A DNA stretch of 64,000 nt, taken from sequence record OZ413487.1; one strand, given 5' to 3'. How positions within the stretch are numbered: position 1 is the first letter of the stretch; the number at the start of each line of letters is the position of its first letter. The notes under the pieces are model-generated. The model was not told where the DNA came from. It saw only the letters and a program-made list of their open reading frames with translations, and did no database searches. Made by a program: the position numbers and the translations under genes. Origin of the DNA: a phage. Below are positions 2,467 to 26,785 of this stretch, one piece after another.

Positions 2467-4890
2467 ATGAGCATGTGGTCGTTCGACTTTGAGTCATCCG
2501 GTTTGCTGGAAGACCCAGATCTTTATTATCACTGCGGCCTGTTTAAAGAGCTGAATAAGAACCGTTTTATGCTGTTCCTTCCTCTAAATGACCGCACACA
2601 CTACTCCGAGGAGGATATAGAAAAGGCTAAGAACTTCATTCTGGCAAAGAAAACTCTTTATAAAGATTTTGAAGTTCGCATAGCAGATTTTTCAGAGTTG
2701 GAAGGTTGGCTTACAGGAAATTCTGACTGGTCACCAACAGCTTTGAACTGCCATAACTGCTACAGTTATGACTTTATGCTGATGGAAAGATTATCTGGTA
2801 TTCATTTTGATATGTTCCGTGATCCTAAATGTATGGGGACTATCAACGATCACCAGGTTAACCTGTTTGATACGTTGGCGATGAGCCGAATCTTGTGGCC
2901 TGATCGCCCTTTACCAAAAGGTTGTCCGGACTCTGTATTCAACCCGGTTACTAAGAAAATGCAGCCTGTTGGTCCTCACGGCCTTATGGCATGGGGCTAC
3001 GCCCTTGGTAACCAGAAAGTTCAAATTGATGACTGGCGCGATCTTCCGTTGTGGAAGTATGTGGATCGTGTATTCGAGGACGTTATCATCCAGGAGCTGC
3101 TCTGGAAAGAGCTGGTAGCGGAATCAAAAGGTGTATTCTACGGCAAATCTGACATGCAGAACTTTATGTACGATCCGGCCAAAGAGAAGCCGAAAGGGTT
3201 CAAGAAGATCACCTGGAAGAACGCATTACGTCGAGGCATGCTGCAGCACTTCCTGATGGAGCTGCAGGCCCGTCAGGGTGTATACTTCGACATAGATGGA
3301 GCTATTGCTTTACGTGACCGTTGCGATGCGTGGATGAAAGAAATCGCTGATCGTGTTGAACCACAACTACCTTTAAAAGAGCTGTCAATGTCTCAGCGGC
3401 CCAAGTTCCCTGAAAAGCCGTTTAACCAAGACGGGACAATCTCTAATAATGGTTGGAAATGGTTAAAAGATAAGCTTGGCTATCCTGTAGACATGAGTGC
3501 TTTAGAGTTCAAAGCCCTGCCTAAGCGAGCATTTACCTCTACAGGAGATGTCAGCAAGATGGGGATAAAATGGTGTGAAGAGATGGGCTGCAAAGACCCC
3601 GATAAGATGGCTGATTTCTTGAGAGGCTATATTAAGGGCACCTCCACACCACAACCCTTACCTAAAGAGCTGATGGATCAGGCAATAAGTGATCTGCAGC
3701 AGAAGCGAATGCCTGACTGCAAGATACCTATGAAAATCAGCAATCAGGACGACATCAAGCGATACCTAATCAGTGCTGGTTGGCTCCCAACAATGTGGAG
3801 AACTAAAGATGTAACTAAAGACAGCAAGAAGAAAGCTTTACCTGATGCAGATGTTGATGCACGAGTATATGCATATATGGACGAGCTTTTGGAGTCAGAG
3901 TATTGTGACCTAATTATCAACTTCTGGAACAAAACTGATGCTAAGTTCCAGACAACCGTGCACAAGTTCCGAAGCTTTCCTAACTCCGAAAGGATTAAAA
4001 AGGAAGTATTCGGGAAAATACGTAGAAAAGCCAGGGCACTTATTACTTCTCCGCAACTGAAAGATACGTTTGGACACCTATGCCCAAATCTTGAAAAATT
4101 GAACGGAGAGATGGCTAAAGATATCGTCTTGTGGTTATCATTGCGAAACCGCAGATCGGTCCTTGATCCAATCAAGGAGGATAAGGTTGATACTGGTCTT
4201 CTTAATCACCCACGTTTGAAGATTGACCATAAGCTTCCTGCTAAAAGCTCTGGATTAACAAACACTTCCAGACAGAAACACAGTATTTGTGCAAACATGC
4301 CTAAACCATCTCCTAAAGTAGTTATGGGTAAAGAGATGCGTAGTCTGTGGGGTGTTCCTCCAGGATACTTTGAGATCGGTATTGACGGGTCCAACTTAGA
4401 GCAGCTCATCGGGGCTTGGGGTGCCTTTGAGTTCGACAACGGCTTGTATTATGATGTTGTAAGTAACGGAGACGCACACCAAAACAATGCTGAGGCATAT
4501 ACAAAAGTGGCAGGCAGAGAGGTGTCCCGTAACGACGGTAAACCTATCACGTATGGGGTTATGTACGGGGCACAAAAAGATAAAGTTGCAGATATGCTGG
4601 ACATCTCCCCAGAGTTGGGACAAAGGGTAATCGATGCACTCTGGGATGCCAACCCAGGTCTTAAGGGGCGCAAAGAGGATCTGGAGAAATTCTGGGAAGC
4701 AACAGGTAAGAAGTTTATCTACTCTTTTGATGGTCATGCTATCTGGACCCGATCTAAACACTCTTTACTTAATGCATACCAACAAAATGGCGGTGCATCG
4801 TTGTGTGACTTAGTTGGAATACTCATGCACCACCAGATGGTGAAGCGTGGGTGGTACGATGAAGGTGTTCGTCGTATTATTTATTACCAT
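2467..4890 (+). CDS. DNA polymerase, family A, exon 1 (3'-5' exo + polymerase motifs A and B, up to His of motif C)
   Basis: N-terminal exo I motif FDFESSGL; motif A GIDGSNLEQ; motif B RNDGKPITYGVMYGAQ; ORF ends ...RRIIYYH-K-stop where family A polymerases have VHDE. Confidence 0.8.
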
Positions 4891-5166
4891 AAATAACATT
4901 GTGGCTTCATAGAGTAATCTATGTCGAATAACCTCTTTAACTGCGGGAAGCCTAAACCTTATGGCAAGGTAATCCGCAACGAAGCGCTCAAAAGAGCGAA
5001 CGCTCAGAGGCCATTCCGAAAGGAAGTAGACCAGCAAGTGCGGTCGAAATGGGAGGATTCCTGTGGTTGCTTATCATAGGAATATGAGATGGTCCGATCC
5101 TACGTGAAAACGTATGGCTATGCACGTAATGGTGCGGGGTAGCTTAACGACCTACCTGAACTATTG
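4891..5166. other. putative group I self-splicing intron in DNA polymerase gene
   Basis: Exon 1 ends in U (4890); intron ends in G (5166); internal guide CAUUGUGG (4897-4904) can pair with exon-1 end CCAU (P1, U.G at splice site) and exon-2 start GAUG (P10); four in-frame stops; splicing restores YYH-DEYQLQV. Confidence 0.55.
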
Positions 5167-16062: not shown

Positions 16063-16458
16063 ATGAATAAAAACGTACGCCGCATCATGAACGAACTGGC
16101 AAACGATGAAAAAATTATTGATATGCATTTGGTCAACATTTGCCGCCGTTGTGTAACATATAACAACCGCGCCGCAAAAGCGCGTGAGATGAACGCAAAA
16201 GGCACCTTAAAGCCCTTTCAGGTGGTTGTAAAATCTATGACCAGTGCAGCAGGCCAGGCGCATGACCACAACAACGGGAGCACTAATATTGATCCATCTT
16301 ACGTAATGAAACGGATCCGGACTTGCAAGAATAAAGAGCAGGTGTATAACGTCATAGATTGGCTGGACTCCCTGGGTGACGTGGTTTACAATAGGTTTTC
16401 TGCAGCTATTGAAATTCAGTTAGACAGGTTGGACGGGAAAGTACTGAAAACTTACTGA
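16063..16458 (+). CDS. hypothetical protein
   Basis: ORF track; AAGGAAAAAGA RBS region. Confidence 0.5.
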   Translation: MNKNVRRIMNELANDEKIIDMHLVNICRRCVTYNNRAAKAREMNAKGTLKPFQVVVKSMTSAAGQAHDHNNGSTNIDPSYVMKRIRTCKNKEQVYNVIDWLDSLGDVVYNRFSAAIEIQLDRLDGKVLKTY

Positions 16459-16460
16459 GT

Positions 16461-16506
16461 TTATTTTTAGATGGCCTTGACTCCAGGGCCATCAATAAAG
16501 TAAACT
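16461..16506 (+). promoter_or_regulatory. repeated hairpin/promoter element, copy 1
   Basis: GATGGCC-TTGACTCCAG-GGCCATC inverted repeat enclosing TTGACT, then TAAACT 18 nt downstream; sits directly after a stop codon. Confidence 0.55.
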
Positions 16507-16735: not shown

Positions 16736-17086
16736 ATGAATACTTCCATCACTATGACCGCCGAAGAAAAAGCCCTGCAGATCGCCGCTCTGAAAAAACA
16801 GATTGCAGAACTTGAAGACAAGATCGACAATTTTGAAATCGACGAAGACAAATACGACGATAAATATGATGAATGGTTGGACGAGATCTACGGCGAAATT
16901 ATGATCGGAAACATTTCTTTTCTTCCGTCGCGTATCCTCAAGGAGCTAGATCCTATCGCTTACCGCTGCGGATTTAGCGACTACATCGACAGCCTGGATA
17001 TTGAGGACGATGAAGAATACCAGGAATTGCAGACAGAGCTTGAAGAAGTGAAAGAAGAGCTTGCAGAACTGGAAGAAAACGAGTAA
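16736..17086 (+). CDS. hypothetical acidic coiled-coil protein
   Basis: ORF track; AAAGGAGA RBS; Glu/Asp-rich. Confidence 0.5.
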   Translation: MNTSITMTAEEKALQIAALKKQIAELEDKIDNFEIDEDKYDDKYDEWLDEIYGEIMIGNISFLPSRILKELDPIAYRCGFSDYIDSLDIEDDEEYQELQTELEEVKEELAELEENE

Positions 17087-17088
17087 GA

Positions 17089-17134
17089 TTATTTTTAGAT
17101 GGCCTTGACTCCAGGGCCATCAATAAAGTAAACT
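17089..17134 (+). promoter_or_regulatory. repeated hairpin/promoter element, copy 2
   Basis: Identical to copy 1 over ~45 nt. Confidence 0.55.
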
Positions 17135-17175: not shown

Positions 17176-17421
17176 ATGGCAGCACTAATCACCAAATATT
17201 ATGCCCCTACCAACACCAAAAGCGCCCGTATCATGGTAAAAGGCTTCGGACGTAAAAAGGTTTACACTTGGGATTATTCCCTAGACATGGAAGACAACTA
17301 CACCAACGCGATGACCGATTTTATTAATGAACTAAATAAGCAGATCTTAACCAATTATAAGGTGACCGACATCGCCTATGTTGGGGAAGGTGGGATCTGT
17401 TTTGTCGGTATTGTCAAATAA
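17176..17421 (+). CDS. hypothetical protein
   Basis: ORF track; AGGAG RBS. Confidence 0.5.
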   Translation: MAALITKYYAPTNTKSARIMVKGFGRKKVYTWDYSLDMEDNYTNAMTDFINELNKQILTNYKVTDIAYVGEGGICFVGIVK

Positions 17422-17430
17422 GCTGTTTTT

Positions 17431-17470
17431 TCGGTGGTCCTGGTGGCAGGGCCATCTATAAAGATAGTTT
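17431..17470 (+). promoter_or_regulatory. repeated element, degenerate copy
   Basis: Shares CAGGGCCATC-nATAAAG 3' half with copies 1-3; 5' half diverged. Confidence 0.35.
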
Positions 17471-20800: not shown

Positions 20801-20803
20801 AAT

Positions 20804-20848
20804 TTATTTTTAGATGGCCTTGACTTCAGGGCCATCGATAAAGTAAAT
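20804..20848 (+). promoter_or_regulatory. repeated hairpin/promoter element, copy 3
   Basis: Same element as 16461 and 17089 with 2 substitutions (TTGACTTCAG loop, GATAAAG). Confidence 0.55.
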
Positions 20849-20893
20849 TTAAACCCTGTTAAAATACCACGCAGTTAACAAGGAGTGATAGAC

Positions 20894-22584: not shown

Positions 22585-22848
22585 ATGAAACGTCTTGATC
22601 AGCTCAAATTAGTTCAATATATGGCTTATCGTGTTCTTGAAGTCCAGAAAGGTAGCAAAAAAGAGGTTTGCGAGAAAGCTTATAAGATCTTCACTCGCAA
22701 AAAAGATGACTGGATGCTACGCCAGACTAAAAAGGCTGACATCTTGGGGTACCTGGAAGAAGAGATCCGCCTTGAAGAGCAAGAAGAGATCCGCCGTAGT
22801 GAGGCAGATTATCAGGCAGCTTGGGAAAACTGGATGAGCAACAAATAA
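22585..22848 (+). CDS. hypothetical protein
   Basis: ORF track; AAAGAGG RBS; last + strand gene before the noncoding zone. Confidence 0.5.
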   Translation: MKRLDQLKLVQYMAYRVLEVQKGSKKEVCEKAYKIFTRKKDDWMLRQTKKADILGYLEEEIRLEEQEEIRRSEADYQAAWENWMSNK

Positions 22849-22867
22849 TACAACAAGGTGCACGGTC

Positions 22868-22893
22868 AGGGGCTTAAAGCCCCTTTCTTTTTG
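22868..22893 (+). terminator. intrinsic terminator ending the + strand gene block
   Basis: AGGGGC-TTAAA-GCCCCT followed by TTCTTTTTG. Confidence 0.7.
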
Positions 22894-23502
22894 TCTCCTC
22901 TTTTCCTACCACAAATGGCCCCGCCTGGCAAATGGAATAATCAACAAGCCAGCAATTAACCCCACTGTACAAACATACATATAAAATAACTATTGCATAA
23001 TTTTTCATTGTGTGGTAGCAGTGCCATTTTTACACGTTTTTCCTTCCAAAATTGCACGTAATGCAGCATTTGCACAAAATTTAACCTGATGCATATCTTC
23101 AATAGCTTGTCAACAACTAAAAATCTTTATAAGTCATACACTTACATAACTACAAAAACGTTTTCTACGTGAAAAATCGAGTATAACTATAGCCGCCAGA
23201 TCTCAGAATTTACGTACGCTCGCCATTCTATAGCCTGCTAAGCATTTATTCCAACCATAGAATAACGGAATAGTCAATACCTGCATAAAATAATTATTCG
23301 TGTAAACTGCATAACATAAATCGGCCCAGGTGTCAACATTTTTCGTAAACAGTCTGGAATTGTCACGTTAGGTTACCATAAGCAGAGAAATCTTTAGTCG
23401 TCTAATGTTTACTGTACATTACTATACTGACTGGAATCATTAGATGACTAAGAGAAAGATAAGAAATAATTAATAATGTAATTATTTTACCTGTAACAAT
23501 AA

Positions 23503-23760
23503 GGCAACTATGCAAACGAATGGCATGGCGCGACGGAGTCGCGACATAATATAAAAGCAGTAACCATCACCCCCGTGATAGTTTGTCTGCAAACTATTAA
23601 TCAGATCATAGTTGCCTTGTATTTAGTTAATCATGACATGACAAGCAAGGCAACTATAGATCTGCTAATAGTTGCCCTGCTTTTATATTATGTCATGCTA
23701 ATTATAATCAGTGCGATTATTGTCATGTATAATTATTGTCATGCAAACGAATGGCATGGC
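23503..23760. repeat. GGCAACTAT motif x4 (two inverted pairs) bracketed by 19-nt direct repeat TGCAAACGAATGGCATGGC
   Basis: Direct repeats at 23511-23529 and 23742-23760; 12-bp inverted repeat ATAGTTGCCTTG / CAAGGCAACTAT at 23608-23619 and 23646-23657. Confidence 0.6.
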
Positions 23761-23767
23761 TGATTAT

Positions 23768-23862
23768 CGGTGTGTAAACAGTCAATCATGTAAATGGTTA
23801 GCATGTGAACAATCAGGAATGTAAACAATCCAGTGTGTAAACTAATAGGTGTGTAAAAGTGT
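23768..23862. repeat. TGTAAAC iteron cluster (5 copies in ~95 bp)
   Basis: GTGTGTAAAC x2-3, ATGTAAA, AATGTAAAC at 11-25 nt spacing. Confidence 0.55.
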
Positions 23863-24134
23863 CATGTTGTGTCAGTTAGGTCACATTATGTCAGACAAGT
23901 TTTTCTCCTCTTTGTCAAGTGCTGCATGAAAAATTTACAAGCTTGTATGGTAGCATTTTTGCGGCCCTGTTTACATTCAGTAATGTATGTATAATCCTTG
24001 TTGTGTGGGCGTTTAGACGTCTAGACGGTTGGAAGTCCACAGGTCAATATCTAATCTATCGGCTGCTAACTATATCCCACACAAATAGTAAGAAATATGA
24101 TTGTTATATGCGTAAACTGTAACTCATGTTATCA

Positions 24135-24505
24135 ATCCCTGTATGGATCGCCAGTGGTGCGCATAATAGGTATTATGTTAAATTGCCCGTAATGATAACA
24201 GTTCTCACAATGATAGGTATTCTCATTCATCCACACAAAATAGGTTGCAAATGTTGTGCCACTGTGTGAACGGCCTGGCCTATTAATTTCTCTCACTGCC
24301 TCGATATTTGAGAATTGTTATCCCTGTATGGATCGCCAGTGGTGCGCATAATAGGTATTATGTTAAATTGCCCGTAATGATAACAGTTCTCACAATGATA
24401 GGTATTCTCATTCATCCACACAAAATAGGTTGCAAATGTTGTGCCACTGTGTGAACGGCCTGGCCTATTAATTTCTCTCACTGCCTCGATATTTGAGAAT
24501 TGTTA
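24135..24505. repeat. tandem duplication, two ~185-bp units
   Basis: Unit beginning ATCCCTGTATGGATCGCCAGTGGTGCGCATAATAGG... occurs twice head-to-tail, essentially identical. Confidence 0.85.
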
Positions 24506-25564
24506 TAAGAATGAGAAGTATTCCCATTCCGTCCGCCTGGCAGCACTCCTGTAGGTCCTGCAAGGACTCTAGCTGAAAGCTAGACCCTTCGGGCCTCCCT
24601 GTAGGTCAGGTCAAAATCGTGGTAGAATTGGGCCTGTTCAGATATTTCTGGCTGACTCTTCAGGTCTGTGTGGGAAAAGCCAACCTCTCCGGCGGGGCAG
24701 GGGGTCATGACGGGAAAATTGCAGGTCAATTAAAAAATTTACGTGGTGTATGAAGCGCTCTTCAGGTAAGGCATGTATTATGGGATGAAACCCTCTTCAG
24801 GCAATGATATTTGTGGGTGTGATATTTGCTGGAAAGCCAGATATGACGGGACTCCCGGCGGGGATGGGGTAGTACAGACAGGGAAAATATGAGAATGTAG
24901 TTGGGGAAATTGATCAGACAGGTAGAGTATGGAATATGTTACAAGTATGTTAAATATGGAGGTTGAATATCTGTAGGATTTGTGTGTAAAATCAAAGACT
25001 TAAGGGGTGTTGTGGTATTTTCTATAAATAATTCAAGTTTAATAGGCAATATTTGTCTCTATCCGCTTTGTGTGGTAAACAGATTCAGATTAGATTGGTT
25101 TACAAGTGTATACATAATATACAAATTAAAGATACAAGAAACCCCCCTCCCCCTTCGGCTACCATTCACCTTTTCCTCTGACTGGTACTTAAACACTTAT
25201 TCAGACTCTTCAGGTTATCACCCATATATCATATGGCAGTGACTGGTGTCCTCCGGCCCCTCTTTCGTCACCCGTCCGCTTCGCCATGCTAATGCCATAG
25301 CCAATGGTTCGGTTGTTCACTCTGTTCACTCAGGTGTATCTCCATACCCCTTCAAACCGAAGAGAACAGAAAACCCGAATTACTCGGTAAAAGAAAAGAG
25401 AAGAACTTAATTTTATCAGGATAGGCAAGAATGTCAAGGCATGACTGCTCACTAAACAAGCAAACAGTCATGTGTGGAAGGTAAGTGATTGTGGTGGTGG
25501 GAAATTTAGTTGAAAGATGTGTTATAGGTGCTCCCAGCACTTTAGCCGGGTAGCTAATTGTGTG

Positions 25565-25846
25565 TCAGTCCAGTGGTTCATCACCTACTTCACTGAAATC
25601 AATGTTCATGGTCTCCTCCCAACCATCAATCTCAGCACCAGAGTAGAGATCTTTAGGACTTACTCCCAAAGCATCAGCAACAGAGTCCATATTTAACACC
25701 TCTGGCAGGTATGATTCATCGAATTCAAGGTAAATCAGGCCACGAGTGTTGTCAGCTCCACCAAATATTTCTATCTTCATGAAATCTCCTCTGGGAATGA
25801 GAGTGTGAACAGGGTTTATACGTTCCAATGCGCTGGAATTATGCAC
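25565..25846 (-). CDS. hypothetical acidic protein
   Basis: ORF track; last gene of the - strand block. Confidence 0.4.
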   Translation of the reverse strand: MHNSSALERINPVHTLIPRGDFMKIEIFGGADNTRGLIYLEFDESYLPEVLNMDSVADALGVSPKDLYSGAEIDGWEETMNIDFSEVGDEPLD

Positions 25847-26473
25847 GTTTGCCTCTTCAGGCCATGCTTCAGCATGAGGAACCTGTGTGGGCTCGGTGCT
25901 TCATAGTCTACCACCCCTGAACTCTTCGTGCTCAGGCATAATAGAGAACCAGATATCTACGATGTCTTCCCACGTCAGGTCATCAGCCTCAGGATCTACC
26001 TGGAGCGAAGATGAAGAATCTTCAGAATCGAAGTTTTCCTCTTGCACTGGCTCAGTCAAGGGACATATAGTCACTCCTTTGGATGTCTCTTCAGATGCAT
26101 GTGTGTTTATCATGTTCCACCCGTGAGTATTCCGGCAACAGCTGCTATGGACGTAATGATCATCAGGATCACCACTAAAACTTCGGACAATGTTCTCATT
26201 GTGTACTCCATATTCTACAAACTATGTGTGGATACTATCACTGGATCGGTAATGTGTCAACAGAAACGCCGCGAGGGTTTGGTTAAAATCCGAGCGTATG
26301 GTGATTTGGGTCAAAACGGACGTGCGTTCTCGCTACGCTCGAAATATGGAGTTGTTTGTAGGGAGCTCTTAAACGCTCTGTAATGAAATTAACTACCCAA
26401 GGTATGCAATCGTGCACCAGACAAAGAAAAGGACGCCACAGAGCGTCCTAGGTGTCTTAAATTTGATATTTTG

Positions 26474-26785
26474 CTATACCCACGAGGGCTTATCAAGGTT
26501 GGAGTAGCTGAAAGGTGTCAAAAGGTGACTGTCAAAATCTCTCAAACTATCCAAATCTTTTTCCTCGTCCTGACACCATCTGTGCCTACATTTGTTGTTG
26601 TAGTGCATGGAATGCATAGCGTTCTGCAACTTAACAGGCACAAGTGATTCAGGAGTAGATAGTATTGTTGGGTATGCCAGAACCACCTCAAACAGTGGAA
26701 ACACATCGAAACTAAAGTCTACCTCTGCAGAGGTTGATGGCATATAGGAGTATTTAGCCGCCTTTGTAGACATAATCCACCTCAC
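26474..26785 (-). CDS. hypothetical protein
   Basis: ORF track. Confidence 0.4.
   Translation of the reverse strand: MRWIMSTKAAKYSYMPSTSAEVDFSFDVFPLFEVVLAYPTILSTPESLVPVKLQNAMHSMHYNNKCRHRWCQDEEKDLDSLRDFDSHLLTPFSYSNLDKPSWV

Follow-up and report, generated by a model that had tools for sequence, protein, structure and literature searches.

The closest described system to the locus studied here is the 459-bp direct terminal repeat (DTR) of the genus Vequintavirus, known from phages LL12, Gotham, EdH4, ECP2309, HdK5, and YN3. For LL12, PhageTerm gives a non-permuted redundancy of 459 bp located between two convergent transcripts (PMC6658697). The Gotham record (MT682716) is annotated with a repeat_region at 1–459 and again at 136567–137025. 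The records of Gotham, EdH4, and ECP2309 each have a prefix that equals the suffix over exactly 459 bp, with end sequences alike, and HdK5 and YN3 carry the DTR at both record ends too. The base at the right boundary is the record start in Gotham, EdH4, ECP2309, HdK5, YN3, and four bov phages, and the left boundary is the record start of Pr121LW and the record end of ECP2303; the 459-bp boundaries serve as record ends in at least 11 records. Within the subfamily Vequintavirinae, phage KPP-1 features a DTR of 514 bp, which has two-fold coverage and is classed as T7-type by PhageTerm. T7-type DTRs appear to resemble the present one as short, non-permuted repeats between fixed cut sites, but have no sequence relationship to it. 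Other descriptions of the group exist: the rV5 genome paper describes the genome as circularly permuted, and one report on rV5-like phages inferred headful packaging. The rV5 paper also draws a "non-coding" box at this locus, which the Phage Annotation Guide calls a "wasteland" (PMC8785237).

The window—the whole stretch of 64,000 nucleotides that was analyzed, from record OZ413487.1—belongs to an rV5-like coliphage of the genus Vequintavirus. The 3.5 kb around the repeat match 122 phage records at 92–97% identity, all of them rV5-like coliphages of this genus. Among them are approximately 18 to 19 unannotated UNVERIFIED records labeled "Campylobacter phage" (MG0656xx, e.g., MG065646.1), 92–99% identical to the locus; these are ordinary Vequintavirus coliphage genomes that have been mislabeled. 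The repeat is located in a gene-free stretch of approximately 2.7 kb between convergent gene blocks. The plus-strand ORFs stop at 22848, and a terminator-like hairpin on the plus strand (22868–22884) closes the rightward block; the minus-strand genes run leftward and end at approximately 25565, which frames the non-coding stretch from the other side. The cumulative GC skew reaches its maximum at this stretch, which also holds the DTR. A non-coding gap between convergent transcription units is the setting of the Vequintavirus DTR and agrees with the description of LL12. The window lacks a 139-aa gene (rV5 ORF164) that is found after an 87-aa gene in most relatives (22848–23500) and also lacks approximately 2.3 kb of small genes that phage 10C2 has (at about 21780). 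Both absences are ordinary mosaicism beside the genome end.

The repeat consists of two head-to-tail copies of a 185-bp unit, copy 1 at 24135–24319 and copy 2 at 24320–24504, which are 100% identical. The perfect tandem duplication of about 185 bp claimed in the first-pass annotation is borne out by TRF, a repeat search, and direct string comparison, which all agree; TRF reports, at 24135–24506, a period of 185, 2.0 copies, 100% matches, no indels, and a score of 744. The in-register match continues for 2 bp beyond the unit (AT, 24505–24506), which gives a junction microhomology of 2 bp. In its form, the arrangement is that of a tandem duplication, with two head-to-tail copies and a novel junction between them at 24319/24320, which reads GAGAATTGTT/ATCCCTGTATGG. 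It is the sole perfect-identity repeat of at least 40 nt within the 64-kb window, and hence, the doubling of 185 bp is far beyond chance. The unit carries internal short repeats, namely three ATAGGT and two AATGATA. Each copy indeed contains one instance of both motifs that the first-pass annotation had pointed out; TATTATGTTAAAT starts at 24171 in copy 1 and at 24356 in copy 2, and ATAGGTATTCTCATTCATCC at 24213 and 24398, respectively.

The main point, which that annotation missed, is that the unit lies inside the direct terminal repeat of the phage, at what would be the physical genome ends. The counterpart of the Vequintavirus DTR, i.e., the concatemer-junction segment, spans 23894–24537 in the window. 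It opens at 23894 with GACAAGTTTTTC and closes at 24537 with CATTCCGTCCGCC. Both boundaries were placed by alignment and by their boundary strings on the plus strand: the left one (23894–23908) reads ATTATGTCA/GACAAGTTTTTCTCC, and the right one (24525–24537) reads CATTCCGTCCGCC/TGGCAGC. The segment is homologous to the experimentally inferred DTR of the relatives, and the two boundary sequences are those of Gotham, EdH4, and ECP2309; the unit is 91–99.5% identical to its counterparts in the phages with a described 459-bp DTR. The 185-bp unit corresponds to Gotham 34–218 and LL12 104,999–105,183 (copy 1 maps to Gotham DTR 218–34 and LL12 105183–104999), and in several records it occupies 34–218 from the record start. 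In contrast to the 459 bp of the relatives, the segment has a length of 644 bp—241 bp, unit, unit, and 33 bp—because it holds one extra 185-bp unit (459 + 185), and none of the other records compared has an internal 185-bp doubling. By comparison with the relatives, the left DTR boundary would be the left physical end of the virion DNA in the orientation of the window and the right DTR boundary the right one, and the DTR would be present at both physical ends of the virion DNA of this phage, too. The chance of the unit falling wholly inside the DTR is approximately 0.002 genome-wide and approximately 0.12 within the non-coding gap; the placement of the doubling is non-random.

An alignment of 16 genomes gives independent support for this placement of the DTR, as the column identity is approximately 95% throughout the DTR and 57–65% immediately beyond both boundaries; the conservation of the DTR interior implies constraint. 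The least conserved part of the locus, with a column identity of 57–73%, adjoins the left boundary (23760–23893). It features hypervariable iteron-like short repeats with TGTAAAC and TGTCA motifs, for which each relative has its own arrays of 9–18 bp; these are possibly sites for terminase or replication proteins. The non-coding DNA to the left of the DTR holds two further repeats. One is direct and perfect over 20 bp, ATGCAAACGAATGGCATGGC, with copies at 23510–23529 and 23741–23760, 231 bp apart; the other is inverted and perfect over 18 bp (23543–23560 and 23677–23694), and 116 nt separate its arms. Just beyond the right end of the DTR, the plus strand has five occurrences of the motif CTCTTCAGG (24656–25861); the window has eight in total, versus 0.5 expected by chance. 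Paired CCGGCGGGG(C/A)(A/T)GGGG boxes accompany these motifs, and several are located in blocks of 94–98% conservation.

The duplication is private to this record. The unit matches 120 phage records, seven of which have two copies; five of these have the DTR at the start and again at the end of the record, and the remaining two, CM1 and I29, carry internal duplications. An 80-bp query across the junction splits in two in all top-ranked matches among the 120 records, the pieces lying 187 bp apart, which means one copy of the unit. The junction GAGAATTGTT/ATCCCTGTATGG, searched as a degenerate 21-mer, has no match in IMG/VR, the JGI metagenome contigs, or the GTDB genome contigs. Both IMG/VR contigs that matched a DTR pattern have a single copy, and so do all 19 assemblies from Logan, ENA, and NCBI that were found by three exact-protein look-ups, the closest being only 98.6% identical to the window. 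The 207-aa protein encoded 5 kb upstream of the repeat has no exact match on record. Taken together, this tandem duplication was found in none of approximately 140 other assemblies, and independent support for the junction came from neither the 120 phage records, the three collections, nor the 21 further assemblies, none of which is more than 98.6% identical. TRF and self-BLAST on the loci of the relatives yielded no long duplications besides those of CM1 and I29.

Neither a gene, a structured RNA, nor a regulatory array could be recognized in the unit. Two ORFs overlap it and were rejected as genes: the variable sites among 16 genomes are spread evenly over the codon positions (16:20:17 and 12:16:12), i.e., there is no codon-position bias, and a stop codon interrupts the minus-strand ORF of 54 aa in five relatives. 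The folding of the unit is no better than that of shuffled sequences (z = 0.28), and an Rfam search of 22800–26600 gives no match even at E ≤ 1; neither the signs of a small protein gene nor those of a structured non-coding RNA are thus present. A scan for promoters and terminators gave matches at chance level: the region has 16 sigma-70-like sites, shuffled sequences have 12.2 ± 3.8, and the only promoter-like match within the unit is a weak one of 9/12 (TCGCCA-17-TATTAT). An array of promoters, operators, or iterons, with sites above chance or a conserved multi-copy state, is not seen. Rather than a gene or regulatory cassette, the unit is a piece of the terminal repeat that is conserved and acts in cis. 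The first-pass annotation had read its motifs as resembling promoter or operator pieces, which these results do not support: promoter matches at chance, no codon-position bias, a fold of z = 0.28, and no Rfam match.

Elsewhere in the window, two structured elements can be appreciated. A 49-nt intergenic element occurs four times (16458–16506, 17086–17134, 17421–17469, and 20801–20849), with 67–98% identity to the reference copy. It folds as a very stable hairpin (−24 kcal/mol, z = −7.0), probably a terminator or regulatory stem-loop that recurs between early genes. On the plus strand, directly after an 809-aa ORF (2467–4896), a group I intron is located at 4881–5116 (RF00028, 64.7 bits); it is the sole Rfam match at gathering threshold. 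The DNA_pol_A domain of this ORF ends at profile position 261 of 381, and hence, the intron appears to split a family-A DNA polymerase gene. The introns of the rV5 paper are placed in the terminase gene instead of the DNA polymerase gene.

Two records of the genus, both in rV5 gene order, share with the window a perfect and private internal duplication at the genome-end locus. Shigella phage CM1 (MK962749.1) features a perfect 523-bp tandem duplication (L006 1173–1695 and 1696–2218), the right end of which is exactly the right genome terminus. The CM1 genome assembly was made with MIRA, and the record apparently retains both copies of the terminal repeat next to each other. Escherichia phage I29 (ON286975.1) was sequenced from Nextera XT libraries and assembled by metaSPAdes with default settings. 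Its record contains two perfect 546-bp copies (L017 2002–2547 and 2596–3141), with 48 nt between them that match the end of the first copy in reverse complement. Together with a microhomology of 7 nt (TCCCTGT), the inverted stretch measures exactly 55 nt to the first mismatch and forms a palindrome without a spacer. The largest default k of metaSPAdes is 55. The I29 duplication is very likely an assembly artefact; it would arise from a contig in which the first and last k-mers are reverse complements of each other and which was then rotated to the rV5 order. Both duplications look like finishing artefacts of the kind described in the Phage Annotation Guide. The unit of the window differs from both, since the CM1 copy ends at the true terminus and I29 carries the inverted signature of k = 55, whereas both bounds of the present unit lie inside the DTR. 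The I29 block starts with TCCCTGTATG, which corresponds to position 24136 of the window and is within 1 bp of the start of the unit. The chance of this coincidence is estimated at a few percent; the two starts could go back to one breakpoint of a physical or technical nature.

The element behind the repeat, the Vequintavirus DTR, has been described before, and the doubling within it is an artefact or an ordinary length variant, not a novel element. Between these two, we infer with modest preference that the second copy has a technical origin in assembly or rotation. The linear genome in virions would carry the DTR at each of its ends; concatemers formed in replication, or a circularized assembly, would have it once, in the non-coding gap between the two convergent gene blocks. 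Assembly of such a terminally redundant genome, followed by rotation, would then leave an internal 185-bp piece doubled, either because a contig-end overlap stays untrimmed or because the assembly passes twice through the terminal region of double coverage. The doubling would in that case not be a biological or functional repeat. This origin is favored because of the placement inside the DTR, the private and perfect state of the duplication, and the technical appearance of both comparable cases in the genus. The copies are identical, occur in one record only, and sit non-randomly at the terminal redundancy, in a DTR whose boundaries are conserved in the window; CM1 and I29, with the sole two other perfect duplications at the locus, look technical, and the I29 block start within 1 bp of the unit start hints at a breakpoint that is shared for technical or physical reasons. 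Terminal redundancies that land inside contigs are a common error according to the Phage Annotation Guide (PMC8785237). However, neither an overlap equal to an assembler k-mer nor a bound at a physical terminus is found here: 241 bp and 33 bp of the DTR lie outside the unit. Typical default terminal overlaps are 55, 77, 99, and 127 for SPAdes and 141 for MEGAHIT, and a value of 185 is not known among the defaults of common assemblers. In addition, the rest of the window has no signs of a poor assembly, as its indels relative to phage 10C2 cluster in divergent stretches and are not scattered homopolymer errors, and a 2-bp microhomology at the junction is equally expected from real slippage or illegitimate recombination. 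A possible though less probable origin is a real and recent duplication, neutral or nearly so, that was fixed by plaque purification and lengthened the DTR from 459 to 644 bp. It would have arisen by replication slippage or illegitimate recombination at the 2-bp microhomology and would have left both terminase cut sites untouched; the copies would stay identical, and their number unstable, through recombination with each other and between the two DTRs. The DTR boundaries, intact at distances of 241 bp and 33 bp from the unit, the in-register AT, the missing k-mer signature, and the otherwise clean window are consistent with such an event. The region is non-coding and should tolerate a change in length, as seen from the identities of 57–65% outside the DTR and the private short arrays there in each relative, and the DTR length differs within the subfamily, as the 514 bp of KPP-1 illustrate. 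Against a real duplication stand the approximately 140 relatives, which show neither this duplication nor any older, diverged or shared one in the DTR, the constraint implied by the roughly 95% conserved DTR interior, and again the technical look of CM1 and I29. Unequal homologous recombination was rejected as an origin, given that no more than 2 bp match in register between the flanks.

Three further readings carry little weight next to the technical origin and the real duplication. If the duplication is real and heritable as a 644-bp DTR, its left breakpoint at 24135–24137, which the independent rearrangement in I29 matches to within 1 bp, might be a place inside the DTR at which site-specific nicking, pausing, or processing occurs as the DTR is duplicated in packaging; we regard this as unlikely. 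Slightly less probable still is that this phage has a terminal repeat of its own that is shorter, the 185-bp unit, and that the copies from the two ends were left adjacent when a linear assembly was rotated. The CM1 record does have both DTR copies adjacent, and the duplicated block of I29 starts at the same base (±1), but Gotham, EdH4, and ECP2309 agree in the 459-bp boundaries, which serve as record ends in at least 11 records and are intact in the window, and the conserved block covers the full 459 bp, beyond the unit. The unit as the whole DTR was rejected because these boundaries are conserved. The least probable reading, and a very improbable one, is a selectively maintained functional repeat, be it through doubled sites for promoters or operators, iterons that bind protein, or a small RNA. 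The internal ATAGGT and AATGATA repeats and the location in a conserved cis-acting region speak for it, but only a single sequence has the duplication, promoter-like matches stay at chance level, the fold and Rfam searches (E ≤ 1) give no signal, and the overlapping ORFs lack codon-position bias, the minus-strand one having a stop in five relatives; this reading is already largely refuted. Of the three options offered in the first-pass annotation, a very recent duplication and an assembly artefact thus both survive. The third, a selectively maintained repeat, is unsupported, as the doubling is private, the approximately 140 other assemblies have a single copy, and searches of three public collections gave no match to the junction.

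The practical value of these observations is one of curation. The length of the record is probably overstated by 185 bp, and the record should be re-opened at the terminus and the DTR annotated. In addition, two GenBank records of the genus, those of CM1 and I29, are flagged for apparent finishing artefacts at the same locus. For the phage itself, the repeat should mark the physical ends of the genome. If the doubling is real, it would only show that the interior of the Vequintavirus DTR tolerates a 40% increase in length—a minor point of packaging-site architecture.
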